64,000 nucleotides of DNA. It comes from Thermoanaerobaculia bacterium. Lineage in GTDB: Bacteria > Acidobacteriota > Thermoanaerobaculia > UBA5066. This document shows, one piece after another, positions 13,776 to 27,740 of the stretch. The notes under the pieces were generated by a model. That model had not been told where the DNA came from, did no database searches, and saw only the letters and a program-made list of their open reading frames with translations. The stretch's first letter is position 1, and each line of letters starts with the position of its first letter. A program made the position numbers and the translations under genes. The stretch is taken from the NCBI GenBank assembly GCA_963816185.1, contig CAWFJJ010000028.1:352001-416000 (forward strand), read 5' to 3'.

Positions 13776-14416
13776 GGATGACACGGAACGTCTTCACGGT
13801 CTCCCCGGGAGACACCTTGAAGTTCGCGAGCAACGTCCTGCACGAGAACCGGATCCATCAGCTTCCCGTCGTCGAACGCGGGGAGCTGGTCGGCTTCGTG
13901 TCGGGTACCGACATACGCAATTCGACGTTCGAGACGTCGACCGTTACGCAGCTCGGCAAGATCCTCGTGAAGAACAAGACCGTCCAGGAGATCATGACGC
14001 GCGAGGTGATCACGGTCAGCCCGGGGGACACGGTCGAAGACGCGCTTCTGATCTTCCACAAGAAAAGGCTGGGCGCCCTGCCCGTCGTGGACGGGAAGAA
14101 GCTCGTCGGAATCATCACGAAAGCCGACGTTCTGGCGGCTTTCTGCGACACCCTCAGGATCGAAGAGCCCGGCGTGAGAATCGAGGTGCTCCTCCCGCGC
14201 GACCCCGGTTCGCTCATTCATCTCGTGCGGCGCCTCGGGGAGCTGAGAACCGAGATCCGAAGCCTGATCTTGTCCCCCTTGCGGGAGGGCTTCGTGGCTT
14301 TCATCCGGCTCTCGACGATCGACGTGGCTCCCGTGAAGAAGTCTCTCAAAGACGCCGGCTTCACCGTGCCCGAGCTTTCGGATTTCTTGGCTGGAACCGT
14401 GCGCGACGAATCATGA
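13760..14416 (+). CDS. acuB: AcuB-like CBS-pair plus ACT-like domain protein (copy 1)
   Basis: Two CBS repeats (IHQLPVV...LVGFVS; LGALPVV...LVGIIT) and C-terminal 'DPGSL' ACT-like part; lies upstream of acuC. Confidence 0.78.
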   Translation: MFVGIRMTRNVFTVSPGDTLKFASNVLHENRIHQLPVVERGELVGFVSGTDIRNSTFETSTVTQLGKILVKNKTVQEIMTREVITVSPGDTVEDALLIFHKKRLGALPVVDGKKLVGIITKADVLAAFCDTLRIEEPGVRIEVLLPRDPGSLIHLVRRLGELRTEIRSLILSPLREGFVAFIRLSTIDVAPVKKSLKDAGFTVPELSDFLAGTVRDES

Positions 14417-14432
14417 GGACTCGAGGTGTGCC

Positions 14433-15062
14433 ATGTTGATTCGAGACATCATGCGGAGCCCGGCCGTTGCCATCTCCGCCGATACGACGCTCCAGGACGC
14501 CTACCAGACCATGCGCGACAGGGAAATCCGGCACCTGCCGGTTCTCGAGGGCGAAAAGCTCGTCGGAGTCGTCACGGATCGTGACCTGAGGCTGGCGACC
14601 AGCGCGCTCGCGCCATCACCGTTCCCGCCAGGCAGCCGCGTCTGCGAGGTGATGACGCTGGAACCGCTGACGGCGGACGCCTCGGACCCGGTCGAGGACG
14701 CGGCGCGCGCGATGCGCGAGCGGAAGATCGGCTGCCTGCCGGTCCTGGACGACGGGCGTTTGATCGGCATCGTCACGGGCCTCGATCTGCTGGACGCCTT
14801 GATGCGCTTGACGGGCGTGCACAAGCCCTCGGGCCGCCTGGAAGTGCGGCTCGCCGACCATCCGGGCGAGCTCGCGCGGCTCACGGGCTTCGTCAGCCAC
14901 CGTGACCTGAACATTCACTCGATCCTGACGTATCCCGAAGGCTCCGACTCGGTTCGGACCGTCCTGCGCATCGGCTCGATCGAAACCGGGCTGCTCGCAC
15001 AAGACCTGCGCCGTGCCGGTTTCGAGGTGCTGTGGCCCCCGGAGAAGCCGTGCCCGCGGTGA
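14433..15062 (+). CDS. acuB: AcuB-like CBS-pair plus ACT domain protein (copy 2)
   Basis: IRHLPV, VTDRDLR, KIGCLPV, 'DHPGELARL...NIHSIL'; GAGG RBS. Confidence 0.85.
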   Translation: MLIRDIMRSPAVAISADTTLQDAYQTMRDREIRHLPVLEGEKLVGVVTDRDLRLATSALAPSPFPPGSRVCEVMTLEPLTADASDPVEDAARAMRERKIGCLPVLDDGRLIGIVTGLDLLDALMRLTGVHKPSGRLEVRLADHPGELARLTGFVSHRDLNIHSILTYPEGSDSVRTVLRIGSIETGLLAQDLRRAGFEVLWPPEKPCPR

Positions 15063-16189
15063 TCTACTCACCGGCCTACGGGAGATACTCCTTCGGCGAC
15101 GAGCATCCCTTCAGCCCCGCCCGCACCGACATGTTGCTCGACCTCGTCCGTGCGCTCGGGCACCCCGTGGAAACGGTCGAACCGAAGCCGGCGACACGGG
15201 AGGAGCTCCTCGACGTGCACGCGGACGCGTATGTCCGCCGCGTGGAGAAGCTGAGCGTGGGCGAGCTCGTTCCGGACGGACCGGAGTATGGGCTCGGAAC
15301 GCAGGACACGCCTTCGTTCCCCGGCATGGACGAGGCGGCGCGGTTGCTCGTCGGCGGAACTTTGCTTGGGGCGCGGCTGATCTCGGAAGGGAAAGAGAAA
15401 CGCGTCCTCCAGCTCGGCGGGGGGCTGCATCACGCGCGCCCCGGCGTCGCGTCGGGTTTCTGCATCTACAACGACCTCGCGATCGCGATCAACTTCCTCA
15501 CCCGGAACGGACTGAAAGTGGGCTATCTCGACATCGACGTCCACCACGCCGACGGTGTTCAGCAAATCCTCGACGAAGACCCGCGCGTCTTGACGGTGAG
15601 CCTTCACGAGTCGGGGAAGTACCTCTTCCCGGGGAGCGGCGAGATTCGTGAGCTCGGCTCGGGTGCCGGCCGCGGCCTGAAGCTCAATCTGCCGCTGGAG
15701 CCATTCACCGAAGGCGAGAGCTACCTGGAAGTTTTCGAGAGGGTGATCCCGGCGGCGCTGCGGCACTTTCGCCCCGACGTCCTCGTCGTCCAGGCGGGCG
15801 CGGACGCGCATTTCGACGACCCGCTCGCCGACCTCATGCTGACGACGCGCGATTACGAAGCCATCTTCAAGCGGATTCTGGAGTTGGCGGACGAATTCAC
15901 CACGGGCCGGGTGCTTTTCACGCTCGGAGGCGGCTACTCGTTCCGCGCCGTGCCGCGCGTGTGGGCGATCCTCTACCTCCTGATTCACGGTCTCCCCGTG
16001 GCGCGGGACCTTCCGGAGTCGTGGCGGAGCAAATGGAGCCGCGCTTCGGAAAGCGAGCTCCCGCTCACCTTCCACGATCCGAATCCGTCGCATGCCGACA
16101 TTCCGAACCGCTACGAGATCGCGCACCGCAACCGGCAAGTGGCCGAGCGGCTGTTGGACCTGACGCGGCAATACTGGTTCCCGAGGTAA
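15050..16189 (+). CDS. acuC: Acetoin utilization protein AcuC (class I HDAC-family deacetylase)
   Basis: HPFSPAR, GGLHHA, SGFCIYND, DIDVHHADG, GADAH..DP, GGGY; GGAG precedes GTG 15050. Confidence 0.9.
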   Translation: MPAVIYSPAYGRYSFGDEHPFSPARTDMLLDLVRALGHPVETVEPKPATREELLDVHADAYVRRVEKLSVGELVPDGPEYGLGTQDTPSFPGMDEAARLLVGGTLLGARLISEGKEKRVLQLGGGLHHARPGVASGFCIYNDLAIAINFLTRNGLKVGYLDIDVHHADGVQQILDEDPRVLTVSLHESGKYLFPGSGEIRELGSGAGRGLKLNLPLEPFTEGESYLEVFERVIPAALRHFRPDVLVVQAGADAHFDDPLADLMLTTRDYEAIFKRILELADEFTTGRVLFTLGGGYSFRAVPRVWAILYLLIHGLPVARDLPESWRSKWSRASESELPLTFHDPNPSHADIPNRYEIAHRNRQVAERLLDLTRQYWFPR

Positions 16190-16226
16190 GCGGGCGGCGG
16201 CTGGGAAATCTTCTTCCCCCGCGTTG

Positions 16227-17420
16227 TTACTTCGGCGCGATCATCTTTCCGGCGGCCTTCGCAGGAGGGTAGAGAAGGACGTGTCGTCCGTTCTGGATCT
16301 GGAAGATGCCGACTTGGTAATGCTGCGGGTTCCCGTGCTCGTCGAATTGCAGCCGCTCCAGCGGGAGCAGCAGGTCGGTTTCGCGTAGGGCGTCGCGGAC
16401 GGCATCCCGCTCCGGAACTGCGGACGCGCGGGACGCCTTCTCGAACGCCGCCAACACCGCCCGCGCCGCGGTGTATCCGTACATGCTGAGCGGCGCCGGC
16501 GGATGCTTGAACTCCCTCGTGAATCCCGCCTCGTAAGAGCGGCTGCCCGCGAGATCTCCGGAGAGCGACATCCCGGGCTCCCAGACGATCGCGCCGATTG
16601 CGCCCTCCGCGACGGGGCCGAGCTGCGCGACGAGCGCCGGGAACTCCATTCCGAAGGCGCCCACGACTGCGAACCCGGAGCTCGTCTGGCCGGAGACCTG
16701 CCGGAGAAGAACGAGGTTGTCCGCGAAAAACCCGTCCATGAGGAGGAGCCGCGCGCCGCTTGCCTTCACGCGGGCAAGGAGAGGGATGAAATCCGGCGTC
16801 CCTGTCTGGAAGCTCTCGAACGTGGAGACTCTGACCCCGTTCGCCTCGAGCCGTTCTTTCTGGAGCCGGGCGAGCTGCGTCGCGCCCGGCGTCGCCGAAT
16901 GGAGGATTGCAACGTCTTTCGCGGGCAGGAGCTCGAGAGGAACGGCCGTCGTGGCGTCCACGAACGGCTCGAGTCGGCTGATCCTGAAGAACCAGGCGTT
17001 TCCGCGCTGCGTCAGCCGCTGATCGAGCGAGGAGCTCGCCACGTAAGGGACGCGTTCTCGCTCGGCCACCTGGGCCACCGGGCCGACGATGCTGTCGACG
17101 TATCCGCCCACGAGCGCGCTGACTCGTTTGTGCGTGGTCAGCTCCTGGGCTGCGGTCGTCGCTTCGTCCGGTCTCCCGCTGTCGTCCCGCGTGATCAGGG
17201 TGACCGGGCGTCCGCGGACCCCGCCGGCGGCGTTCGCCTCCGAGACGGCGTAGACGACGCCTTCGTGCACGGCCGCTCCCTGGGCCGCCATGACGCCGCT
17301 GAGGGACTCGACCTCGCCGATTCGCAGGTCCACGGCGCTCTTCGGGTCGCGGGAGCACCGCGCGGCGTAAAGCCCCAACGCCAGCAGCGGGCCGAATGCG
17401 GCGAACCGTGGAACCTTCAC
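16227..17420 (-). CDS. LivJ/LivK-like ABC substrate-binding protein (probable lipoprotein)
   Basis: Signal peptide with Cys, 'ANAAGGVRGRPVTLITRDD', 'WFFRIS', 'LQFDEHG'. Confidence 0.85.
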   Translation of the reverse strand: MKVPRFAAFGPLLALGLYAARCSRDPKSAVDLRIGEVESLSGVMAAQGAAVHEGVVYAVSEANAAGGVRGRPVTLITRDDSGRPDEATTAAQELTTHKRVSALVGGYVDSIVGPVAQVAERERVPYVASSSLDQRLTQRGNAWFFRISRLEPFVDATTAVPLELLPAKDVAILHSATPGATQLARLQKERLEANGVRVSTFESFQTGTPDFIPLLARVKASGARLLLMDGFFADNLVLLRQVSGQTSSGFAVVGAFGMEFPALVAQLGPVAEGAIGAIVWEPGMSLSGDLAGSRSYEAGFTREFKHPPAPLSMYGYTAARAVLAAFEKASRASAVPERDAVRDALRETDLLLPLERLQFDEHGNPQHYQVGIFQIQNGRHVLLYPPAKAAGKMIAPK

Positions 17421-17445
17421 GCGGTGACCGGTTCCGTGCCGAGGG

Positions 17446-18414
17446 TCAGAAGGCGGGCAGAGGCTGCCGCGCTTCCATCAAGAGCTGCCTGGTCCCGTCG
17501 GACCGGGCCGTGTCGCGCTCCATCTGGATGGAAGCGAGGCGAGAACGCCATGGGGTGAGGTCGAACGTTTCGTCCTTCGGCGAGGCGAGGCAGGCGTCGA
17601 TCAGGTCCCGGTAGAAGCGGACCATGCGCTCGACGAGAGGCACGGGGTATTCGCGCCCTTGTACTTTCAGGCACGCGACATCGAGATCGATCAGGTGCGG
17701 GATGTCTTCCAGAAGAAAGAATGCATCGTTCTTCAGCGCCACGCTGCTTTCCCACTTCTCGTCGCCGGAATAGAGGTCCCAGGACTCCAGGCAGACGCGG
17801 TAATCGAGACCGCCGCGGTTCGGACTTCCCTTGAACAGGTCCTTCCCGAAGGCGTCCGTCGTGCGCTCGAGACGGTGATAGGGAGACATCCAGCATTTCC
17901 CGAGGTACGTGTAGCACTTGTTCGCGTGGATCAGGATCTCGATCCCGACGTCGATGCGCTCTTTCCGGGAGGCCAGCTCCCTGAGGGTCAGCTTCGTGTC
18001 GGCGACCACCTGCGAGACGCCGATCGACCGGTAGAACCTCACGTCCTCGTCGTTGAGGATATTGGCCCCGATCGAGGCGTGGATCGTGAGATGCGGAAAT
18101 CTCCGGTGGACCTCGGCGATCGCACCGATGTCGGTCATGATCGCCCCGTCCACTCCCCAGGATACGAATCGCTCCATCTTTGCCAGCATGGGGGCGATCT
18201 CGTGAGACTGCATGTTCGTGTTGAAGGCCACGCGCAGCTTGGCGCCGCCCGCGTGGGCGATTTCGATCGCGGTGCGGACGTCCTCGTCGGACATCTCGTA
18301 TTTGTCGCGCCTCCGGCTCCAGCCGCGAGGACCGACGTAGATGGCGTTCGCACCGTTCGCGGCCGCCCCTCGGACCATCGGAAGATTCCCTGCCGGCGCC
18401 AGAAGTTCGACCAT
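17446..18414 (-). CDS. U32-family Fe-S protein (UbiU/TrhP-like)
   Basis: MVELLAPAG, GANAIYVG, DGAIMTDIG, IHASIGA, EILIH..C......C, LKVQGR; GAGGAGG RBS. Confidence 0.88.
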   Translation of the reverse strand: MVELLAPAGNLPMVRGAAANGANAIYVGPRGWSRRRDKYEMSDEDVRTAIEIAHAGGAKLRVAFNTNMQSHEIAPMLAKMERFVSWGVDGAIMTDIGAIAEVHRRFPHLTIHASIGANILNDEDVRFYRSIGVSQVVADTKLTLRELASRKERIDVGIEILIHANKCYTYLGKCWMSPYHRLERTTDAFGKDLFKGSPNRGGLDYRVCLESWDLYSGDEKWESSVALKNDAFFLLEDIPHLIDLDVACLKVQGREYPVPLVERMVRFYRDLIDACLASPKDETFDLTPWRSRLASIQMERDTARSDGTRQLLMEARQPLPAF

Positions 18415-18434
18415 GATCTTCCTCCTCGAGCTGC

Positions 18435-19388
18435 CTATGATTCCGCGCGCGAGATCGTCGGAAGGGACCCGAGCGCTTCCGGCCGAAGCCCCTGGTACTC
18501 CATTCCGCTCTTGCCGAAGTAGAAGCCGTTGCAGAGACCGACGTGCGCGTGACGCCGAAGCGTTTCCCACCACGTCTCGTTTACGTCGCCGTCGCCTGCG
18601 ATCGCCCCTTCCAGAGCCGCGCGATACACGGCCGCGACCTCACGCCGGTAATCGGGAGTCTCCGAGACGGTTTCGATCCGGAAGTGCCGGTGGCCCCCGG
18701 CGATCAGACGCGGCAGATGGTCGAGCATGCACACGTCCTTGCCGCTCAGAATTCCCTTTCCCAGCGACTTCATCGCCCAGTCTCCCTGCTTCAGGAACAG
18801 CTCTTTCTGGCAGAGGTCGGGGCACTTAATTCCCCACTTCTCCTCGTAATCCAGCAGGAAGCAATAATCCGAGACGCCTAGCGGCATCTTGCCGTGGACG
18901 AGAAGCTCCAGGGGCGCGGAACAGGCTGCCGTGATCTCGTGGATCTCGTCCAGGCTCAGCTCGTAATTCGGTGTGAACCTCACGGCCCCGAAGCCGCGGA
19001 GGACCTCGGCGCCAGCCGCGGTGTAGACGTTCGCGAAGCCCCCGACGTGGACGGGGAGCTCCGGAAACTCCTCGTGTGCGATCCTCAGGATCCCGAGGTT
19101 GTGGACCTCGACCGCTTCGGCGCCCGCTGCCGCCGACGCTTCCAGCATCTTTCTCACCTTCGGCAGGAAATCGTTCCGCGGCGCCGCGTACGTCGCCGCA
19201 TAGGCCTTCTTTCCCTGGTCGCGAAGGATGTGGAGCCCTTCCTTGAGGTCTCCGAGCTGCTCCAGGAAGTTCGATTCGTAGAGCCGGCAGTAGATGTCGC
19301 CGAGGTAAACCGCGTCGTAGCCGGTCAGGTTCGAGGCTCGGAGGTCTCGCAGGTTCGCGATCGTCGTGTTCAGCTCGAAGCCGGTCAT
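18435..19388 (-). CDS. U32-family Fe-S protein (UbiV-like)
   Basis: VYLGDIYC, YELSLDEI, ELLVHGKMPLGVSDYCF, CPDLC, C-terminal LCNGFY, all matching the UbiV-type pattern. Confidence 0.85.
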   Translation of the reverse strand: MTGFELNTTIANLRDLRASNLTGYDAVYLGDIYCRLYESNFLEQLGDLKEGLHILRDQGKKAYAATYAAPRNDFLPKVRKMLEASAAAGAEAVEVHNLGILRIAHEEFPELPVHVGGFANVYTAAGAEVLRGFGAVRFTPNYELSLDEIHEITAACSAPLELLVHGKMPLGVSDYCFLLDYEEKWGIKCPDLCQKELFLKQGDWAMKSLGKGILSGKDVCMLDHLPRLIAGGHRHFRIETVSETPDYRREVAAVYRAALEGAIAGDGDVNETWWETLRRHAHVGLCNGFYFGKSGMEYQGLRPEALGSLPTISRAES

Positions 19389-19438
19389 GAGCGGTCAGTC
19401 TCCCGTCGCATTTCGCGCCTCGCCATTCGTCCTCTCCC

Positions 19439-20389
19439 TCATCGTCCGACGACGGCCCACGCCGTCGGCAAGGAGGCCGGTGGCGGCTCGAACGGGTCCG
19501 TCATCGCCCGAGCGTCGAGCGCCTTACGGTAGCGGCGCACGAGCGGCGCCAGCAGCTCCACCGGAAGGCTTCGGCCTTGCAGCTTCAGGACATCGGCTCC
19601 CGCCTCGGCATAGGCGCCGACATCCGCGATCCGGCTGATCTGCCGGCTCGGAAAAAGGCGCGTGTCGACATGACGACCGGCGGCGAAGAGCTCCCACGGT
19701 TGCTGGCAGATTCTGAAGCAGGCCCCGACGCCCCCTCGCTTCACGCTGCCGGTCTGCCGCAAACCCTGATGAGCACCCTCCGGCGCCTCGCCCGCGAAGT
19801 CCCTCGACGAGCCTGCGGCCCGGAAGGGCGACGGCTTCAAATGCACGTAGCTCGGCATCCAGCATTTTCCGAGCAGGACGAACTCCTCGACCATGTGGAC
19901 CATGATCTCCACGGAGATTCCCCCGACCGTTCTGATCTCGCGCACCTCGGCGGGGCTCACCGTCCCCGGCAGGACGACGGCGTGGGCGCCCAGGTCCCGG
20001 AAGAGAGCGACGTCGGCGACGGTCTGGGCGCCGCAGCCGATGCTGGCGGTCAGCCGCAACCTCTCGAAGCGTCGCTTGAGGTCCGCGAGGATTCCGACGT
20101 CGTTCACGATGACATCCCGAATCCCGAGCTCCAGGAGGGCGGCGACATGCTCGAAGAGTCGTGCACGTTCCGCGGGCTTCGGAATCGTGTTGAGGGCGAC
20201 CTGGAGACCCCGGCCGGCCGAGGTCACCTCGTCCCACGCGGCCTCGAGCTCGTCCCAGCGCAGCTCTCTCCGCGCCCCGCCGCGGCTCCAGCCCTCGAGG
20301 CCCACATACACGGCGTCTGCCCCCGCGCCGAGAGCGGCCCGGACGGCCTCGAGACTTCCGGCCGGCACGAGGAGGAGAGGCACTGCCAT
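19439..20389 (-). CDS. U32-family Fe-S protein (UbiU/TrhP-like)
   Basis: LLVPAGSLEA, GADAVYVG, VIVNDVG, GKCWM, CFRIC, LKLQGR. Confidence 0.85.
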   Translation of the reverse strand: MAVPLLLVPAGSLEAVRAALGAGADAVYVGLEGWSRGGARRELRWDELEAAWDEVTSAGRGLQVALNTIPKPAERARLFEHVAALLELGIRDVIVNDVGILADLKRRFERLRLTASIGCGAQTVADVALFRDLGAHAVVLPGTVSPAEVREIRTVGGISVEIMVHMVEEFVLLGKCWMPSYVHLKPSPFRAAGSSRDFAGEAPEGAHQGLRQTGSVKRGGVGACFRICQQPWELFAAGRHVDTRLFPSRQISRIADVGAYAEAGADVLKLQGRSLPVELLAPLVRRYRKALDARAMTDPFEPPPASLPTAWAVVGR

Positions 20390-20510
20390 CACCCCGGCCA
20401 AAATACTACGTGCCGTCGACTATTCATCGCGTCGAGTGATTTTAGGCTGCGATTCCGGCCGCGAGTCAAGATGTTTCTCTCGATTCGCTCGTACCCTGTA
20501 ATCTCCGGCG

Positions 20511-21035
20511 ATGGCAGCGCGCCACGGTCTCACGGAAACGTACCGCACGATGGCGAATCTGCGGCGGTTTTTCGAGTCGGTCCGGAGGACGATCACGGCC
20601 GAGCCGACGACCGGGGGCCTCACGCCCGCCCAGCAGTTCGCCCTCCTGACGCTCGCGGGCAGCCCGTCGGACGCCCCCCTGACGATCGGCGACCTGGCGC
20701 GCGAGACGTTTGCCACGATGAACACGACCTCCGCCCTCGTGAGGAGGATGGAGCGCACCGGCCTCGTCCGCACGACGCGCTCCCCGAGGGATCGCCGCTT
20801 CGTCTACGTCAAGCTGACGGCATCCGGCGAACGCCGCCTTCGTCCATCCACGGCCGCCGTTGCAAAGGCCCTGCGCGCTGCGGCCGACGAGCAGGGAAGA
20901 GCCCAGCTCCGCACCGCGTTCGAGACGTGGTTCGACAACTGGGGCGCCGTCATCAAGGCGCTGTCGTCCTCTCCCCGCAGGCGTGGGCGCCGAACGCGCC
21001 GGCAAGTCGCCGGGAGATGGCGGGCTCGCCCTTAA
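20511..21035 (+). CDS. MarR-family transcriptional regulator
   Basis: GLTPAQQFALL, LVRRMERTGLV, DRRFVYVKLTASG; divergent from the U32 operon. Confidence 0.9.
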   Translation: MAARHGLTETYRTMANLRRFFESVRRTITAEPTTGGLTPAQQFALLTLAGSPSDAPLTIGDLARETFATMNTTSALVRRMERTGLVRTTRSPRDRRFVYVKLTASGERRLRPSTAAVAKALRAAADEQGRAQLRTAFETWFDNWGAVIKALSSSPRRRGRRTRRQVAGRWRARP

Positions 21036-21040
21036 GGCTC

Positions 21041-21346
21041 CTACTTCCTCTTGTCGCTCACCTGGGTCAGCAGCGAGTCGCTGACGTGCGTGACGAGGCC
21101 GTGGAAGACGACCTTGACCTTGCGGAAGCCCGGGTCGGTGAGGATCTTCTCGAGCGCCGCGAGGCTCTCGAGGTCGACCTGGACGAGCCGCTGCGGGGAG
21201 GATCCGCCCAGCATGCTCTTGTAGGTGCGGACGGCCTTGACGCCTTTGAACTTCAACCAGATGTTCTTGCCGGGGCCCTTGGTGTACCTCTCGTACTCCC
21301 TGAGCTTCCCGGGCAGGACGTCGAACCTGTACTCGAACGTGACCAT
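21041..21346 (-). CDS. Small dimeric alpha+beta barrel-like protein (NIPSNAP/DUF1330/EthD-like)
   Basis: 101 aa, 'FDVLPGKLREYE...DLESLAALE'; AAGGAGG RBS before ATG 21346. Confidence 0.55.
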   Translation of the reverse strand: MVTFEYRFDVLPGKLREYERYTKGPGKNIWLKFKGVKAVRTYKSMLGGSSPQRLVQVDLESLAALEKILTDPGFRKVKVVFHGLVTHVSDSLLTQVSDKRK

Positions 21347-21365
21347 GGAACTGCCTCCTTGATTC

Positions 21366-22142
21366 CTATCTTCCCGTCCAGACGGCCGCTCTCTTGCCGA
21401 GGAACGCCGAGATCCCTTCCTGTGCATCGGACGTCATGGAGCTCATCGACATGATCTCCTTGGTGTACGCGTACGCTTTCGGCTGATCGAGGTCGATCTG
21501 CGAGTAGAAAGCCTGTTTCCCGATGGCGAGCGTGACGGGGCTCGCCTCCGCAATGTGCGCCGCGAGCTTGCGAGTCTCCTCACGGAGCGCGCCTGAAGGC
21601 ACGACGCCGTTGACGAGCCCCCAGTCAGCGGCCGTCGTCGCGTCGATCGGGTCCCCGGTCAAAAGCATCCGGAGGGCGCGCTTGCGACCGACCGCACGGG
21701 TCAACGCGACCATCGGAGTCGCGCAGAAGAGGCCGATCTTGACTCCCGGCGTGGCGAACCAGGCCTCCTCGGCGGCGACCGCGAGGTCACAGGTCGCCAC
21801 GAGCTGGCATCCCGCCGCGGTGGCGACGCCCTGAACCTCGGCGATGACGGGCTGCGGAATCGACTGGATCTTCATCATCAGCTCGGCACAGACGTCGAAG
21901 ATCTGGCGGTAATCGTTGATGTTCCTCCCGACCAGCTCGCTGAGATCGTGTCCCGAGCTGAAGACCTTCCCGGCCGCGGCGAGAATGACGGCGCGGAGCT
22001 GCCGGTCCTCTCCGATGCGTCCGAGGCAGTCCAGCAGCTCCCGCATGAGCGCCAGCGAAAGGGCGTTGCGCCTCGCGGGTCGGTTCAGCGTCACGACCGC
22101 GACGGCCCCATCCGTCTCGAAGCAAAGGCTTTCGTATCCCAT
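21366..22142 (-). CDS. Enoyl-CoA hydratase/crotonase family protein
   Basis: TLNRPARRNAL, FSSGHDL, PVIAEVQGVATAAGCQL, DAQEGISAF; AGGAG RBS. Confidence 0.92.
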   Translation of the reverse strand: MGYESLCFETDGAVAVVTLNRPARRNALSLALMRELLDCLGRIGEDRQLRAVILAAAGKVFSSGHDLSELVGRNINDYRQIFDVCAELMMKIQSIPQPVIAEVQGVATAAGCQLVATCDLAVAAEEAWFATPGVKIGLFCATPMVALTRAVGRKRALRMLLTGDPIDATTAADWGLVNGVVPSGALREETRKLAAHIAEASPVTLAIGKQAFYSQIDLDQPKAYAYTKEIMSMSSMTSDAQEGISAFLGKRAAVWTGR

Positions 22143-22170
22143 CTGAAGTCTCCTTTGCCGGCCGCTCTCT

Positions 22171-22503
22171 CTAGTGCCCGCAATATTGCGGGAAGTACTC
22201 GTCGTCCCCGATGAACTCGGGGAACTGGACGCGCACTTCGCCCAGGGGATGGAAGTCGGCGTCGAACTCCAGGGCGACCACACGCTGGTCCTGGCCGTCG
22301 TAGTACCGGAAGACATAGCGCCCGTCAGGCAGAGCCAGAGCATCGATCGCGCGGCTGTCGTCGAAGTTGAGAGCCATGCTTACCAGCAGGTCGGGGACCG
22401 AATAGACGACGCCCTTGATCGTCAGGGTCTGTTCGCCGCTCCCGAGGGGGCCGTAGCGGCTCTCCATCAGCGCCGGGCCTTTCAACCCAGCCACGGCGCT
22501 CAC
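22171..22503 (-). CDS. Hypothetical protein (110 aa)
   Basis: GTGA overlap with the upstream gene, GC3-biased codons, fills the operon gap. Confidence 0.6.
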   Translation of the reverse strand: MSAVAGLKGPALMESRYGPLGSGEQTLTIKGVVYSVPDLLVSMALNFDDSRAIDALALPDGRYVFRYYDGQDQRVVALEFDADFHPLGEVRVQFPEFIGDDEYFPQYCGH

Positions 22504-22718
22504 GCTTCCTTCGGAGCCGCCGCGGGCCGCTTGAAGATCAGGTGCAGACCGATCGTCCCGTAGGCCACGCCATCTTTGTTCGGAGCGATGAGCGGGGCAG
22601 CCGAGACGAGCTCCCAGCCTTCGGAGCCGGCGCCGTTAATCCAGGTGTCCAGGCCGCTCACCATGCCACCTTCTCCGTCGCTGAAGATGACCATTCGATC
22701 GAAGTACTCCCACTGCAT
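22500..22718 (-). CDS. DUF4177-like small protein
   Basis: MQWEY...INGAGSEGWELVS...FKRP signature. Confidence 0.75.
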   Translation of the reverse strand: MQWEYFDRMVIFSDGEGGMVSGLDTWINGAGSEGWELVSAAPLIAPNKDGVAYGTIGLHLIFKRPAAAPKEA

Positions 22719-22776
22719 GATCGCTCCCGTTACGCACCTCAGCCTAGCACAGGGCCACGGGAGAACCGGCGTCTCG

Positions 22777-23514
22777 TCAGGCTTTTGCGAGGTGGTCGCC
22801 GAGCCAGGCGCTGAGGGTCTCGCAGGCCGAGCGGTTGAACCGCAGCTCGCTGTGGTTGAACCAGCGCGGGAGGTAACGGATCAGGCCGCTCTCGTGCTGG
22901 ACGTCGGGGCGGATATTCTCGGAGACGAGGCGCTTTTCGGAGGCGGGGAGCTCGGCCTGCAGGCCCGCGGCGCCGTCGAGAAGCGCCTGGATGTCGCGCT
23001 CCGAGTAGAGGAGGAGACAGGGGCGGCCATGCGACGGGACGGGGCCGAGCTTTTCGAGGAGCTCGAGGACGTATCCCGAGTAAGGCTCGCGGAGCCCGGG
23101 GCTCGGGAGGTTCTCGAACATCCATTTGCCCTGCGGGGACATTTGCATCATGACGGACGGCGACATCGCCACCATGACGTCCGCCGACGACATGAGCGCG
23201 AGCCTCCCCCCGAGGCTGTGGCCGATCACCGCCGTCTTGCCGAAACGCCGGACGAACGCGACGGCGGCCTCGAGCTCATCGCGCATCGCCGGGCCGATCG
23301 GCGCCATGTTCTCGCCGTGCCCGCAGAGGTCGACCGCGAGAACGGCGATCCCTTTCTCGGCCACGGCCGTGGCGATCCCGAGCATCTGCTCCTTCGACGA
23401 GCCGTAGCCGGGGCACGCCACGGCACCGCCGCGCGGCGAGGCCGGGACGAAAAGAAAGCCGGGGATGACATGGCCGTCCGGCGCCCTCAAGTCGTTCACC
23501 CTCCGAAATTCCAT
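22777..23514 (-). CDS. Alpha/beta hydrolase
   Basis: PGYGS, AVDLCGHGE, nucleophile elbow GHSLGG. Confidence 0.85.
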   Translation of the reverse strand: MEFRRVNDLRAPDGHVIPGFLFVPASPRGGAVACPGYGSSKEQMLGIATAVAEKGIAVLAVDLCGHGENMAPIGPAMRDELEAAVAFVRRFGKTAVIGHSLGGRLALMSSADVMVAMSPSVMMQMSPQGKWMFENLPSPGLREPYSGYVLELLEKLGPVPSHGRPCLLLYSERDIQALLDGAAGLQAELPASEKRLVSENIRPDVQHESGLIRYLPRWFNHSELRFNRSACETLSAWLGDHLAKA

Positions 23515-23515
23515 C

Positions 23516-23962
23516 TCACTGCTCCTTCGCCTTGGCCTCGAGGGCCGCGAGGCGCACGTTGAGCTCTTTTTGCTTCTGCCAGCGGGCCGTCACGTCCTGG
23601 ACGATCGCGGCCACGCCGGCAAGCTCGCCGCTGCCTCCGCGGACGAGGACGACGTTGAACTCGATGGAGATCCGCGAGCCGTCTTTCCGCACGGCCGGAA
23701 CCGCAAGCGGGTCGCGCCCATATTTCGTGACCCCGCTCGCCATGACTTTCTCCCAGCCTTCCCAGTGTCTCTGCCTCTGGCGCTCGGGCACGATCAGGTC
23801 CAGCGACTGTCCGAGCGCCTCTTTTTCCGTGTAGCCGAACACGGTCTCGGCTCCGGAGTTCCAGAGGCGAATCTTCCCCTCGCGGTCGGCGAAGAGGATC
23901 GCCATCGGGCTGTTCTCGACGATTCTCCGGCAAAGCCAGCCGTGGTCAGGGGACTCGGTCAT
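23516..23962 (-). CDS. Stand-alone PAS domain protein
   Basis: ILFADREGKIRLWNSGAETVFGY..EALGQSLDLIVP...KDG...IVQDVT, followed by a short helical tail. Confidence 0.88.
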   Translation of the reverse strand: MTESPDHGWLCRRIVENSPMAILFADREGKIRLWNSGAETVFGYTEKEALGQSLDLIVPERQRQRHWEGWEKVMASGVTKYGRDPLAVPAVRKDGSRISIEFNVVLVRGGSGELAGVAAIVQDVTARWQKQKELNVRLAALEAKAKEQ

Positions 23963-26783
23963 GTGATTCTCCTTCGACGGTCACGCTCGCGACCTGGGCG
24001 GAAGGGTCTGCGGCGCGCGGGCGTGCCGGCGCCGTCGTCGTGTAACGGGCGGCCCGTTCCTTGTGAGGACGCGCCACGCGAATGCGCGCATCGAGGATGC
24101 GGCAGCCGTCGCCGGGAGACCCGACGAAGATCGGGCTGAGCTCGAGCTCCGCGATGTCCGGCGCTTCCTCGACCAGACGGGAGACGCGCAGCAGGACGTC
24201 CTGGATCGCCTCGATGTCGGCGGGCGGGTACCCGCGATAACCCGTGAGCAGGGGATAGCCGCGGGCTTCCCGCACCATGGCGGCGGCGGCGCGGTCTGTC
24301 AGGGGAGTCACGCGCACGGCACGATCCGCGATCGCCTCTACATGAATTCCGCCGAGACCGAACGCGATGAGAGGACCGAAGGAAGGGTCCTCGAACATTC
24401 CGACCGTCACCTCGACGTCTCCCTTGAACATCGGCAGGACGAGCACGCCTTCCTTCGCCTCGAACGTGCCGTCCGCCGTCAGGGAATCGCGAATCACGTC
24501 GAAGGCTCTCCGGGCCGCGACCTCGTCGGGGACGTTCAGATGGACCGCCCTCTTCTCGGTCTTGTGAAAGACCTGGGGGCTGGCCGACTTGACCGCGACC
24601 GGGAACCCTACGCTCCGGGCCATCTTGGCGGTCTCGTCGGCGGTGCGGGCGACCCCACCCGCAGCGACGGGAAGGCGCATGGCTCGAAGGACTGCCCTTG
24701 CTTCCTCCGCCGTGAGCCAACCCGCCCCGCGCTCTTCGATCGCCCGCCGGCACGTTCCGCGCGCGGACGCCGGCTCGATGTCGTCGAAGTCGGGAACGAT
24801 CCCGTGCGGGCCTGCTCGCCACACGGCGTACGTCGCGATCTTGCCGAGCACGCGCGCAGCAGATTCCGGGTACGCATACGTGGGAATGCTCTCGCCGCCG
24901 AGCGCAATCGGCCCGCTGGCATCTTCCTTCGCCACGAGGCAGACCAGAACCGGCTTGCCGGCTCCGCCCGCAGCGCGCGCGCCCGCCGTGCCCCGCCGGA
25001 TCGCCTCCAGCATCGCGGCCGATCCTTCCTCGTCGAGCGGGGTTTGGATCGCGATCACGGAATCCACGTCGCGATCGACGAGGAGCGACTCGAGCGCCTG
25101 AGAGTACTGATCCGCCGAGGCCGAAGCGCCAAGCACGAGCGGATTGCCGATCGCCGCACCGGGCGAGAGAAAGGCCTCGAGCCGCCTTGCCGTCGAGTCG
25201 GAAAAGGGACTGACGGAAAGCCGGGCCGCCTCGCAGGCGCCCTCGCAGAGGATGCCGGGGCCGATTCGGTCCGAGAGGATCGCCACGCGGCGCCCCAGAG
25301 GCAAAGGCTGCCGGTCAAGCGCGGAAGCGAGATCGAACATCTCGTCCAGCGTCTCGGCGCGGATGACTCCAGTCTGGCGGAAGAGCGCATCCACTGCGGC
25401 GTCGTCCGCGACGAGAGCCGCCTCGCCGGATCCGGTCTCCACGCTCGCCGCCCGGCGCCCCGGTTTCACGACCACGATCGGCTTCTCTCGGCTCACGCCC
25501 CGGGCGATTCGCGCGAACCGCCGTGGATTCCCGAACGACTGGAGGTAAAGGAGGATGACGCGCGTCGCTTCGTCGCCTTCCCAGTACTGGAGGAGGTCGT
25601 TGCCGGAGATGTCGGCCTTGTTTCCCACGTTGATGAAAGTCGAGATGCCCACGTGTCGCTGCCGCGCGAGGGACAGCATGGCGAGACCCAGCGCGCCGCT
25701 CTGGGACAGCATCGCGACGCTTCCGCTCGGCGGGAGAATCGGGGATGCCGAAGCGTTGAGCCGGATCGCCGGATCGGCGTTCAGGAGGCCCATGGAGTTG
25801 GGCCCGACCAGGCGCATCCCGTGGCCTCGAGCTTTCTCGAGGAGTTTCTCCTGCAGGGAACGCCCCTCGGCCCCCGCCTCGGCGAATCCCGCGGTGACGA
25901 CGACGAGCGCCCGGACGCCGGCCGCGGCGCAGTCGTCCACCGCATCCAGCACCGCGTCGCGCGGCGCGACCATGATGGCGAGATCCGTCCCTTGCGGGAT
26001 CTCGCGTGCGGAGGGAAAGGCCGGCCATGGCGCGATGGAGGGCAAAGTCGGGCTGGCCGCGTAGACAGGGCCCTGGAAACCTCCCTTGGACAGCGCCTCG
26101 AGGATGCGCAATCCGATGCTCGAGGTCTCGCGGGACGCGCCGACGACCGCGATGGACCGCGGCCGGAAGAAGGGACGAAGCGAGGCGGTCGTGAAGACGC
26201 GGTCCCTCATTTCCGAACGGCTGACGCTGTCCTCGCTCGGAGCGACCGTGAAGTCGATCTCGACGGATTCATCCTCGATCCTGGAGTGGATCGGAAATCC
26301 CGACTGCCGAAACGTCTCCAGCATGAGCTGGTTCCCCAGCAACGTCAGAGCCCAGAAGCGAACGAAGCCGTGCCGCGCCGCAAGGAGGGCCAGCCGCTCG
26401 AGGAGAAGACCTCCGAGGCCCTTCCCTTGAAACTCGTCATCCACCGCGAAGGCGACCTCGGCGCTCGCCTCGTCGCGCGCGACGTAGGAGCCGGTCGCGA
26501 TGATCCGGGACGTGCCCTCCACGACCCGGCTCACGATCAGCGTGAGCTGCACCCGAGGGTTGGACGAATCGCACTGCCGCTTGAGCAGCGACTCTGCCGG
26601 ATCGGCGGCCGAGAAGAAGCGGCGCCGCTTCGACTCGGGCGAGAGCTGATGGAAGAACTCGCGCAGCGCGTCGAGGTCTCCCGGCTCCGAAAGGCGGATG
26701 AACGCGGTGGAGCCGTCGCGCAGAATGAGACGGCCGGATTCCGCGGAGTCCTGATAGGTCGGCGGCAGGAAAAGGGTTCGCAT
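23946..26783 (-). CDS. Pat-type protein lysine acetyltransferase (N-terminal GNAT plus NDP-forming acyl-CoA ligase-like domains)
   Basis: LRDGS, AEVAFAVDDEFQGKGLG (GNAT), then IAVVGAS, VGPNSMG, SQSG, GNKAD and ATP-grasp. The SHT phospho-His motif is absent. Confidence 0.88.
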   Translation of the reverse strand: MRTLFLPPTYQDSAESGRLILRDGSTAFIRLSEPGDLDALREFFHQLSPESKRRRFFSAADPAESLLKRQCDSSNPRVQLTLIVSRVVEGTSRIIATGSYVARDEASAEVAFAVDDEFQGKGLGGLLLERLALLAARHGFVRFWALTLLGNQLMLETFRQSGFPIHSRIEDESVEIDFTVAPSEDSVSRSEMRDRVFTTASLRPFFRPRSIAVVGASRETSSIGLRILEALSKGGFQGPVYAASPTLPSIAPWPAFPSAREIPQGTDLAIMVAPRDAVLDAVDDCAAAGVRALVVVTAGFAEAGAEGRSLQEKLLEKARGHGMRLVGPNSMGLLNADPAIRLNASASPILPPSGSVAMLSQSGALGLAMLSLARQRHVGISTFINVGNKADISGNDLLQYWEGDEATRVILLYLQSFGNPRRFARIARGVSREKPIVVVKPGRRAASVETGSGEAALVADDAAVDALFRQTGVIRAETLDEMFDLASALDRQPLPLGRRVAILSDRIGPGILCEGACEAARLSVSPFSDSTARRLEAFLSPGAAIGNPLVLGASASADQYSQALESLLVDRDVDSVIAIQTPLDEEGSAAMLEAIRRGTAGARAAGGAGKPVLVCLVAKEDASGPIALGGESIPTYAYPESAARVLGKIATYAVWRAGPHGIVPDFDDIEPASARGTCRRAIEERGAGWLTAEEARAVLRAMRLPVAAGGVARTADETAKMARSVGFPVAVKSASPQVFHKTEKRAVHLNVPDEVAARRAFDVIRDSLTADGTFEAKEGVLVLPMFKGDVEVTVGMFEDPSFGPLIAFGLGGIHVEAIADRAVRVTPLTDRAAAAMVREARGYPLLTGYRGYPPADIEAIQDVLLRVSRLVEEAPDIAELELSPIFVGSPGDGCRILDARIRVARPHKERAARYTTTAPARPRAADPSAQVASVTVEGESHDRVP

Positions 26784-26879: not shown

Positions 26880-27740
26880 GTGTCAGCGGCCGTCCCGATT
26901 TTCGACGCGCACATTCACGTCGGCCCGCACGATCGGATGAACGAAGGGGCCCGCCGCATCATGCTGGACGGGCGAGACGATCTCGACCTCCTCGAGCGGG
27001 TCATGGGCTCGGCGGACGAGCTCCTCCGGGCGATGGATGCCGAGGGCATCGCGCGCGCGGCTCTCATCAACTCCGTGGCTCCCGACACCCTCGGAATCAC
27101 CGACATGGTGAACCCCTGGATCGCGCGATACGTGGAGGGTCACCGCGACCGGCTCGTTCCGGTCGGAGGGATCCACCCGCGGCACTCCCGCGACGTCGCC
27201 CAAGACATGAAGAAGCTGCTCGACGTCTACCGTCTGGGCGCGATCAAGCTCCACCCGCCCCACATGGAGATGGCCGCGAATGCGTACCGGACGGACTGCC
27301 CCTCCCTCGCCGACGTCTACCGCCTGGCGGGGGAGGCCAACCGGCCGGTCCTGATCCACACGGGGACTTCCATTTTTCCCGGCGCGCGCAACGTCTATGC
27401 GGACCCGATGGCGTGCGACGACGTGGCCGTCGACTTCCCCGGGACCACGCTCGTTCTCTGCCACGCCGGCCGCCCTCTTTGGTACGAGACGGCGTTCTTC
27501 CTCGCGAGGCGCCATCCGAACGTCCTGCTCGACCTCTCGGGCATCCCGCCGCGGAAGCTCCTCGAGGTCCTTCCCCGGATCTCCGAGATCGCCGATCGCG
27601 TCTTGTGGGGAACCGACTGGCCCTCGAAGGGCGTCCGCTCGATGCGCCGGAACGTCGACGATTTCCTGGCGCTTCCCCTTTCGGACTCGGTGCGGCGGAA
27701 GATCCTGTTCGACAACGCGGCCGCGCTCTTTCCGGTCTGA
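26880..27740 (+). CDS. Amidohydrolase_2 family metallohydrolase
   Basis: DAHIH, IKLHP, IHTG, CHAG, WGTDWP; TATCAT lies 7 nt before the GTG. Confidence 0.88.
   Translation: MSAAVPIFDAHIHVGPHDRMNEGARRIMLDGRDDLDLLERVMGSADELLRAMDAEGIARAALINSVAPDTLGITDMVNPWIARYVEGHRDRLVPVGGIHPRHSRDVAQDMKKLLDVYRLGAIKLHPPHMEMAANAYRTDCPSLADVYRLAGEANRPVLIHTGTSIFPGARNVYADPMACDDVAVDFPGTTLVLCHAGRPLWYETAFFLARRHPNVLLDLSGIPPRKLLEVLPRISEIADRVLWGTDWPSKGVRSMRRNVDDFLALPLSDSVRRKILFDNAAALFPV

Follow-up and report, generated by a model that had tools for sequence, protein, structure and literature searches.

To our knowledge, U32 proteins are the only enzymes that take a hydroxyl oxygen from an organic donor, prephenate, and the locus described here raises the question of what three of them might do together. 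It lies in a Thermoanaerobaculia bacterium (assembly GCA_963816185.1, contig CAWFJJ010000028.1, positions 352,001 to 416,000; this whole stretch of 64,000 nucleotides is referred to as the window) and comprises three U32 genes arranged head to tail on the minus strand at 17446-20389, in the order C (UbiU-like), B (UbiV-like) and A (UbiU-like). A preliminary description of this DNA had proposed that order, which was upheld by matches to PF01136 (Peptidase_U32), by alignment and by a tree. Our best reading is that the triplet encodes a multi-subunit anaerobic hydroxylase for a small molecule, in which carboxylates may stand in for cysteines as cluster ligands.

Gene C (19439..20389, minus strand) encodes a short UbiU-like U32 protein of 316 amino acids (aa) that matches PF01136 with an E value of 1e-21 (77.8 bits); an alternative TTG start at 20401 would add four residues. 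Gene B (18435..19388, minus strand; 317 aa, E 7.1e-38, 130.6 bits) is UbiV-like, and gene A (17446..18414, minus strand; 322 aa, E 3.1e-36, 125.3 bits) encodes another short UbiU-like protein, all three scores lying above the gathering score of 22.4 bits. Gene A starts with the ATG at 18414, just past the TAG stop of B and with the Shine-Dalgarno sequence AGGAGG 6 nt upstream; a longer open reading frame (ORF) reaching 18573 was therefore discarded as the gene. The gaps are 50 nt between C and B, 20 nt between B and A, and 25 nt from A to the following binding-protein gene. The whole genome (5.09 Mb in 30 contigs, 94.9% complete) contains exactly these three U32 matches, all adjoining, hence the tandem arrangement is not a matter of chance.

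UbiU and UbiV form a heterodimer with one [4Fe-4S] cluster per subunit, and their ligands were determined by experiment as C169, C176, C193 and C232 in UbiU and C39, C180, C193 and C197 in UbiV; most other U32 families carry C-x6-C-x15-C-x3/4-C (PMC6747719). We aligned A, B and C with E. coli UbiU, UbiV, TrhP and RlhA (from NC_000913.3). Gene B has C34 and, downstream, C176-x12-C189-x3-C193; this is the UbiV ligand pattern C-xn-C-x12-C-x3-C with its upstream first cysteine, the spacing is identical to that of C39/C180/C193/C197 and, as in UbiV, a proline occupies the position of the lost first cysteine. The triplet proteins share with the prephenate-dependent TrhP and RlhA the conserved C-x6-C ... 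C-x3-C motif region (PMC6599085, PMC5727448). Unlike UbiU, A and C each have an acid at one ligand position. Gene A reads C167-x6-C174-x29-D204-x3-C208, with Asp at the third ligand cysteine (the UbiU C193 position), and gene C reads E169-x6-C176-x47-C224-x3-C228, with Glu at the first (the UbiU C169 position). The stretch that bears C232 of UbiU is missing from both, and the four-cysteine ligand set of UbiU is found in neither. The Glu, the Asp and the UbiV-type cysteines of the middle gene had all been picked out in the preliminary description, and all three assignments survive the alignment.

The conservation of these columns was tallied after ortholog rows shorter than 250 aa had been removed, leaving 81 rows for A, 73 for B and 68 for C. 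C167, C174, D204 and C208 of A are each present in 81/81 orthologs, the spacer between C174 and D204 is 29 residues in all 81, and D204 lies inside an invariant stretch. Other cysteines of A are C248 (70/81) and C275 (25/81), none being invariant besides the three at ligand positions. Since A thus has no cysteine alternative in its own chain, we regard the evidence for Asp204 as the predicted ligand as strong. In the orthologs of C, C176, C224 and C228 occur in 68/68 and E169 in 66/68, residue 169 being Gln in both Thermoplasmata loci, while the C176-C224 spacer ranges from 30 to 55 residues. An extra cysteine, Cys119, is found in 66 of the 68. Both orthologs that lack Cys119 retain Glu169 and both that have Gln169 retain Cys119, so that every C sequence has at least one of the two, and the fourth ligand of C may be either Glu169 or a relocated Cys119. 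In the orthologs of B, C34 is present in 72/72 filled rows and C176, C189 and C193 in 73/73 each, together with the extra cysteines C220 (73/73) and C286 (72/72 filled rows). The substitutions are therefore not specific to this assembly, a point that the preliminary description had wished to see checked.

The wider family was examined in 160 aligned rows, in which the residues at the four ligand positions were CCCC in 110, ECCC in 12, PCCC in nine, CCDC in nine, DCCC in seven, NCCC in three and QCCC in two, with a few singletons. A tree of 88 rows (quick IQ-TREE run, LG+G4, support by the Shimodaira-Hasegawa-like approximate likelihood ratio test only) comprises all the non-CCCC rows, the seven references and 18 triplet orthologs, with the CCCC library rows thinned to every third, so that about two thirds of them are omitted. 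In this tree A and C, which are paralogs with 32% identity, share a starred clade (96*) whose 39 rows are short proteins of some 300-345 aa. Joined by four more short proteins (98*, 43 rows), this clade forms the sister group of E. coli UbiU (support 87). The grouping of B is with E. coli UbiV (99*), to which a long-branch warning applies. The TrhP and RlhA rows include none of the three, and the phylogeny that the preliminary description had called for leaves them outside the characterised UbiU, UbiV, TrhP and RlhA groups. The non-CCCC rows lie nearly all inside the short U32 clade; CCDC is restricted to the A clade, and the nearest neighbours of A in the tree are DCCC proteins. An acid or amide at the first cysteine position is common to this wider clade of short U32 proteins, in which the loss is ancestral, and is not special to C. 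On cluster look-up, most of the DCCC-type relatives proved to be singletons, under the name of 'U32 family peptidase' or 'putative protease', and a metagenome scan with P0004, the nearest relative of A outside the A group, found no relative.

Cys119 has its own distribution. The column holds Cys in 19/24 acid/amide-CCC rows versus 8/110 CCCC rows (Met being usual), and Ala in all A and all B/V-type rows. Cys119 also occurs in five short proteins with all four canonical cysteines and is missing from five acid/amide-CCC rows (for example P0015, P0034 and P0018). Three DCCC relatives are likewise without it, and there only the acid is left as a fourth ligand. The two replacements had been presented at the outset as complementary swaps, which is right in that both are conserved and too strong in that the loss of the first cysteine is shared by the wider clade and C has Cys119 besides. 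The accompanying caution that other cysteines might prove to be the ligands may apply to C, through Cys119; A has no such alternative in its own chain.

Equivalog models confirm the distance from the characterised proteins. The NCBIfam model for UbiU (NF047963, cut-off 440 bits) gives 121.3 bits with A and 87.1 with C, that for UbiV (NF047965, cut-off 275 bits) gives 78.9 with B, and that for TrhP (NF011996, cut-off 534 bits) gives 135.9, 94.9 and 83.5 bits with A, B and C. The TrhP matches reach only to about position 186 of 449, and the C-terminal TrhP domain is not covered. RlhA is characterised by the U32 motif together with DUF3656 (PMC5727448), and PF01136 is the sole Pfam domain over cut-off in A, B and C. 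With A as the query, a profile-free search of 1.84 billion representative sequences yielded 8420 matches at E <=0.001 and only 61 at E <=1e-30.

In order to follow the triplet beyond this genome, we scanned one genome per species with A, which gave 87 stretches, the best 80 of the 87 being used for locus counts. At these 80 loci the relatives of A are 65-93% identical to that of the window. Their hosts are Thermoanaerobaculia, other Acidobacteriota, Terriglobales (Korobacteraceae, Sulfotelmatobacter), Methylomirabilota/NC10, Rokubacteria, Anaeromyxobacteraceae and two Thermoplasmata metagenome-assembled genomes (MAGs). With the window proteins as tblastn queries, A was found at 80/80 loci, B at 76/80 and C (at least 45% identity) at 70/80. 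Synteny, which the preliminary description had also marked for checking, is constant: the order is C-B-A wherever the contig reaches, and the misses among those listed fall at contig ends. A fourth U32 match occurs in the flanks of 1/80 loci and is a broken C. The C-B and B-A gaps in 28 loci are mostly below 50 nt, with some 4-nt overlaps. Identity matrices for 67 loci are correlated (r = 0.83 for A-B, 0.76 for A-C and 0.92 for B-C) and the A, B and C subtrees repeat the same lineage groupings, from which it follows that the three travel and evolve together. Collectively, these data show that the three genes are inherited, transferred and constrained as one unit, which is spread among soil and peat microbes and conserved across phyla.

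Among close relatives the triplet is patchy. Of 40 relatives from the same order, eight have all three genes, one has a fragment at a contig end and 31 have no U32 match with this query; of 401 genomes drawn evenly from the phylum, three were found to have an ortholog of A (E <=1e-80), all of the window's genus. A plasmid collection contained no match at 60% identity or more, all 57 records lying below. In the two Thermoplasmata MAGs (loci L070 and L093), A is 72-76% identical and closest to Terriglobales copies, reflecting either cross-domain transfer or a binning error. Locus L035, in a MAG labelled Acidithiobacillales, has an A of 84% identity with binding-protein, deacetylase and CBS neighbours of Thermoanaerobaculia type, and looks like a mis-binned contig.

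The genes that accompany the triplet across phyla point towards coenzyme A (CoA) ester metabolism. A 552-aa AMP-forming CoA ligase is found near the triplet in 26/80 loci, two family-III CoA-transferases in 18 and 21 of 80, and two small proteins without a family match, c12 (with a zinc-ribbon-like cysteine pattern) and c8, in 22/80 each. At least one gene of this CoA module lies within the 8 kb flanks in 31/80 loci. A relative of an Amidohydro_2 protein is present in 15/80, an ABM-domain protein in 14/80 and an IclR regulator in 10/80, the last mostly in NC10. In the window's genome the module lies at G000:C28:333253-340447 (L099:11253-18447), 29 kb upstream of the triplet on the same contig and 12-19 kb before the window start. 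Its order is a major facilitator superfamily (MFS) carboxylate transporter, which exceeds the cut-off of the L-lactate MFS model, the two CoA-transferases (CoA_transf_3), c12, c8 and the ligase. The same row of genes adjoins the triplet directly in NC10, in Terriglobales and in one Thermoplasmata locus, and in the window's genus this row and the triplet share a contig, 10-30 kb apart. In the set of 40 relatives, c12 is present in 8/9 with the triplet (the miss being a genome in 370 contigs) and in 0/31 without it, and in all but one of these eight it is 10-30 kb from the triplet on one contig, the exception being G005, with both on short separate contigs.

The top solved relatives of the ligase are anthranilate-CoA ligase (4wv3, E 6.9e-78) and several benzoate-CoA ligases, and the CoA-transferases resemble formyl-CoA, succinate-hydroxymethylglutarate and benzylsuccinate CoA-transferases. 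These likenesses point to a carboxylic acid, probably aromatic, that is handled as a CoA thioester, although they do not identify the compound itself. No match to benz_CoA_red_C was found in the genome, a single model that does not prove absence. Some details of the module concern its annotation. The second CoA-transferase switches reading frame at G000:C28 ~336957-336966 (L099 ~14957-14966), which is either a 1-nt assembly frameshift or a sequencing error. The c8 match is split over two genes (G000:C28:337786-338785; L099:15786-16785), one for a Cys-rich N-terminal part and one for a C-terminal part that may be thioredoxin-like, and they are separated by a 127-aa ORF that belongs to no known family; only the C-terminal half is present in NC10 loci. 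A frameshift was dismissed as the cause of this split, the two domains being separate genes with the small ORF in between. The AF2 (AlphaFold2) model of c8 is poor (predicted local distance difference test score, pLDDT, 53), and its order of strands and helices, with weak Atlas leads (scores 0.78), only hints at a thioredoxin-like C-terminal half.

The triplet may be linked to prephenate through a fusion of 3-deoxy-D-arabino-heptulosonate 7-phosphate (DAHP) synthase with a C-terminal CM_2 chorismate mutase domain (DAHPS-CM), which is found near the triplet in 9/16 Terriglobales loci and directly upstream of it in the gene maps inspected. In 4/4 genomes searched the fusion is an extra, lower-scoring copy, and each of these genomes has in addition a separate CM_2 beside another DAHP synthase; a single CM_2 was found in the one fusion-free Terriglobales genome that was searched. 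Prephenate is the oxygen donor for UbiU/V and is needed by TrhP and RlhA (PMC10990095), so that an extra chorismate mutase at the triplet fits a dedicated supply of the donor; it fits a biosynthetic cluster equally well.

Based on this data, we propose, with a probability of about 55%, that a single O2-independent U32 Fe-S hydroxylase system has A, B and C as its subunits, follows the plan of UbiU-UbiV with another UbiU-like paralog added, and acts on a small organic acid. By analogy with the UbiU-UbiV heterodimer, the subunits would assemble, whether into an A-B-C complex or into A-B and C-B pairs in alternation, and each would bind one [4Fe-4S] cluster. In A, Asp204 would replace the third cysteine to give a cluster held by three cysteines and one carboxylate, with one exchangeable iron; in C the fourth ligand would be Glu169 or the relocated Cys119, and B would use UbiV-type ligation by four cysteines. 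At the labile fourth ligand (Asp204 of A, perhaps Glu169 of C) the iron could bind substrate or prephenate, or the cluster could interconvert with a [3Fe-4S] form. An electron-rich ring would be oxidised with, by homology, the hydroxyl oxygen coming from prephenate. The substrate would be neither ubiquinone nor RNA, and a small organic acid, most likely aromatic, could be handled as the free acid or CoA thioester by the co-inherited module (the MFS transporter, the two family-III CoA-transferases, the two small proteins and the benzoate/anthranilate-type CoA ligase). Downstream, the product would be processed by an alpha/beta hydrolase and by an Amidohydro_2 enzyme acting as decarboxylase or hydrolase, and in this lineage the module would have come under MarR control and gained an ABC (ATP-binding cassette) binding protein.

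A more far-reaching version can be held only tentatively. This would be the first catabolic U32 hydroxylase, a U/V/U heterotrimer in which two of the three [4Fe-4S] clusters have a carboxylate-ligated exchangeable iron that binds substrate or prephenate; the enzyme would need neither O2 nor molybdenum to hydroxylate an aryl acid or aryl-CoA, a dedicated chorismate mutase would feed it, and its genes would form a pathway island moving between soil and peat bacteria and into Thermoplasmata.

The AF2 model of C, built from a 40-sequence alignment, has a mean pLDDT of 81.2 and a predicted template-modelling score of 0.78, with strands and helices alternating as in a TIM barrel. A Foldseek search with it gave 5d88 (U32 peptidase Mk0906, E 2.3e-8) as the top match, followed by generic TIM barrels, and a phmmer search of PDB sequences with A gave no matches.

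Three proteins with these family matches could simply be the lineage's tRNA or rRNA hydroxylase, with the function of TrhP or RlhA, or its anaerobic quinone hydroxylase, with that of UbiU/UbiV, considering that they are the sole U32 genes of the genome and that their top NCBIfam models are TrhP, UbiU and UbiV. We consider this very improbable. The scores are 54-136 bits against cut-offs of 275-534, the C-terminal TrhP/RlhA domains are not found by Pfam, and the tree separates the three from the TrhP and RlhA rows; presence as patchy as that described above (31/40 relatives without a U32 match, 3/401 phylum genomes with an A ortholog) does not fit a housekeeping RNA-modification role, and there are no RNA-modification genes beside the triplet. 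A ubiquinone role is made unlikely by the lack of any match to the UbiT/SCP2 model in the genome, as the preliminary description had supposed from its own stretch, by the lack of a ubiA_proteo match over cut-off and by two MqnA/D matches over cut-off, which indicate menaquinone synthesis by the futalosine route. A biosynthetic rather than catabolic role, in which an aromatic precursor of a cofactor or secondary metabolite is hydroxylated and the extra DAHPS-CM raises the supply of precursor rather than of oxygen donor, seems to us improbable, if less so. Extra DAHPS-CM copies are often seen in aromatic biosynthetic clusters, and the copy next to the triplet is such an extra one; it has weak NCBIfam matches to BagF/FevY, as the MarR protein has to BagL/FevM, and by our own reasoning a stoichiometric use of prephenate suits a low flux. 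Opposed to this are regulators of the MarR and IclR types, an uptake binding protein with an MFS carboxylate transporter, and the CoA-transferases, an enoyl-CoA hydratase and the Amidohydro_2 gene, whereas no synthase, non-ribosomal peptide or polyketide synthase, or prenyltransferase is found among the recurrent neighbour clusters.

Closer to the proposed hydroxylase system are two alternatives that keep the chemistry and change the architecture. It is possible, if rather doubtful, that the acids are not ligands at all, that C uses the relocated Cys119 and that A receives C220 or C286 of B in trans or holds a [3Fe-4S] cluster, which would make this an ordinary all-Cys U32 hydroxylase with its ligands rewired. 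Relocation of a ligand is established for C39 of UbiV and C232 of UbiU (PMC6747719). Cys119 is kept in all but two of the C orthologs, is enriched in acid/amide-CCC rows and never disappears together with Glu169, and B has six invariant or near-invariant cysteines, two beyond the need of one cluster. Such rewiring does not account for A, which has no fourth invariant cysteine and has Asp204 exactly at the ligand position in every ortholog; moreover Cys119 occurs in five four-Cys short proteins and is missing from five acid/amide-CCC rows, and the C286 motif is common to E. coli UbiV, whose partner UbiU has four ligands of its own. That no heterotrimer exists, and that B pairs in turn with A and with C as two UbiU/UbiV-like heterodimers for two successive or regiospecific hydroxylations of the same pathway, we think unlikely. 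The sole biochemically defined U32 assembly is a 1:1 U-V heterodimer (PMC6747719), A and C as same-clade paralogs could compete for one V-type partner, and the identities of B and C co-vary most tightly; the strict 1:1:1 gene set with its tight spacing fits both arrangements and does not discriminate between them. The hydroxylase system proposed above has further points to answer. The enrichment of Cys119 (19/24 versus 8/110 rows) is in keeping with a relocated cysteine, not Glu, as the ligand in C, residue 169 is Gln and not Glu in both archaeal C proteins, and the extra invariant C220 and C286 of B might serve in trans. The cluster loop of C between C176 and C224 (residues 188-221) is modelled at pLDDT below 50, and PDB searches with the sequence of A and the model of C found no U32 protein with a bound cluster, so that the canonical ligand geometry is known from mutagenesis only. 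The genomes in which c12 and the triplet co-occur are close kin and therefore represent one or few events, not 40 independent trials, and in the window's genome the CoA module lies 29 kb off with one CoA-transferase reading as frameshifted. According to PMC10990095, no U32 protein has had hydroxylase activity directly shown in vitro. Finally, one prephenate per hydroxylation would, by our own reasoning, be costly for a growth substrate.

The genes immediately around the triplet are in part specific to the lineage. A Peripla_BP_6 (LivJ-type) ABC substrate-binding protein (16227..17420, minus strand; PF13458, E 6.3e-49) is the last gene of the operon in this lineage, and a MarR-family regulator (20511..21035, plus strand; PF12802, E 2.6e-11) is divergent from gene C. 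The MarR gene is found divergently within 400 nt of C in 24/80 loci, nearly all of one lineage, and a Peripla_BP_6 gene of the same orientation follows A within 400 nt in 14/80; these two genes are a lineage-specific context. The preliminary description had based a small-molecule role on them, a general argument which these counts do not sustain; the role itself is made plausible instead by the CoA module, the Amidohydro_2 gene and the chorismate mutase fusion. A 128-aa protein without a Pfam or NCBIfam match (21041..21427, minus strand) stays close to the triplet in this lineage and was found in 19/80 loci with an identity of at least 60%. An alpha/beta hydrolase (22777..23514, minus strand; Abhydrolase_6 and Hydrolase_4 matches), possibly a thioesterase, is a neighbour that recurs across phyla, its cluster c5 being present in 19 loci, NC10 included. 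The Amidohydro_2 protein (26880..27740, plus strand; PF04909, E 3.5e-33) is 43% identical to the product of the Amidohydro_2 gene that adjoins the triplet in Terriglobales, and members of this superfamily include reversible aromatic-acid decarboxylases and lactone hydrolases.

A stand-alone PAS protein of 148 aa (window 23516-23962) recurs near the module in 12 loci of Thermoanaerobaculia type and of Terriglobales, in the latter after the CoA ligase, and may be a sensor for the pathway. Two proteins of the Hist_deacetyl family and two CBS proteins, of which one has an ACT domain, are encoded in the operon flanks (window 11928-16189 and 23946-26783), together with a GNAT domain joined to a body that resembles ADP-forming acyl-CoA synthetases; 12/80 loci retain the deacetylase and CBS genes. 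This set is reminiscent of the AcuABC and Pat/LdaA systems for control of acyl-CoA ligases by lysine acetylation. A sigma-54 activator at G000:C28:348937-349985 (L100:8937-9985) is split into two ORFs (Sigma54_activat, then AAA_lid_14 with HTH_8), which may be another assembly frameshift. An Rfam scan of window 15000-23000 gave no match, and promoter and terminator scans gave nothing exceeding shuffled controls. Contigs of one soil metatranscriptome library cover 30/30 bins of window 16227-20520, mostly at less than 95% likeness, and one of them spans the B/A junction. They stem from relatives, with DNA carry-over possible, and are no evidence of transcription. A search of sequencing reads found no run with half of the sampled words.

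Among known systems, the triplet most resembles E. coli UbiU-UbiV, which belongs to the same family and has a U-type and a V-type subunit encoded side by side (PMC6747719, PMC10990095). The position of A and C as sisters of UbiU, the UbiV spacing of B and the possible prephenate link strengthen the likeness. The triplet differs in having three subunits rather than two, in the absence of UbiT and of any ubiquinone marker over cut-off, in scores far below the equivalog cut-offs and in a gene context of CoA-ester metabolism. Tandem U32 paralogs are also known from B. subtilis, in which TrhP1 and TrhP2 (YrrO/YrrN) are both required for 5-hydroxyuridine (ho5U) (PMC6599085). Unlike TrhP and RlhA, A, B and C are of about 320 aa with a U32 domain only. 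A possible earlier sighting is the group PepU32#6: Table S2 of Kimura et al. 2017 (PMC5727448) assigns to it four Ca. Methylomirabilis oxyfera proteins with neighbouring accessions (D5MIP8, D5MIQ0, D5MIQ1 and D5MIQ2), and Pelosi et al. 2019 (PMC6747719) describe its cysteines as only mildly or poorly conserved. The triplet occurs in NC10 genomes, and weak cysteine conservation would be expected if A-, B- and C-type sequences were pooled. We infer from organism and description, not from sequence alignment, that PepU32#6 corresponds to the triplet proteins; the available portions of that account give no function, three-gene set or paralog-specific ligand patterns. We found no paper on a three-gene U32 set, on its ligand patterns or context, on U32 proteins in Methylomirabilis or Acidobacteria, or on U32 proteins with CoA-transferases, in a literature search with most subscription journals outside its coverage.

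Clusters with mixed ligation have precedents in unrelated folds. Pyrococcus furiosus ferredoxin, IspG, NsrR and B. subtilis Fnr hold a [4Fe-4S] cluster with one Asp or Glu ligand, and ligation by three cysteines and one carboxylate would give a labile, site-differentiated iron that allows substrate binding or conversion to [3Fe-4S]. A and C would resemble these proteins to the extent that the carboxylate ligation suggested by their alignment is correct.

As far as their sequences indicate, the triplet is a new form of putative U32 Fe-S hydroxylase, real and conserved across phyla. According to the available sections of two papers, no in vitro assay, cluster-bearing structure or role of the Fe-S cluster has been established for U32 proteins (PMC10990095, PMC11574389). 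The naturally fixed non-cysteine residues at two ligand positions mark irons that may be catalytic, and they provide ready-made variants for spectroscopy. The authors who described prephenate as the donor foresaw that the same chemistry might serve in anaerobic aromatic breakdown (PMC10990095), and the triplet module, with genes for a soluble substrate alongside, is a concrete candidate for it. If the function is confirmed, it would provide a molybdenum-free and O2-free route of hydroxylation in the carbon turnover of anoxic soils and peat.

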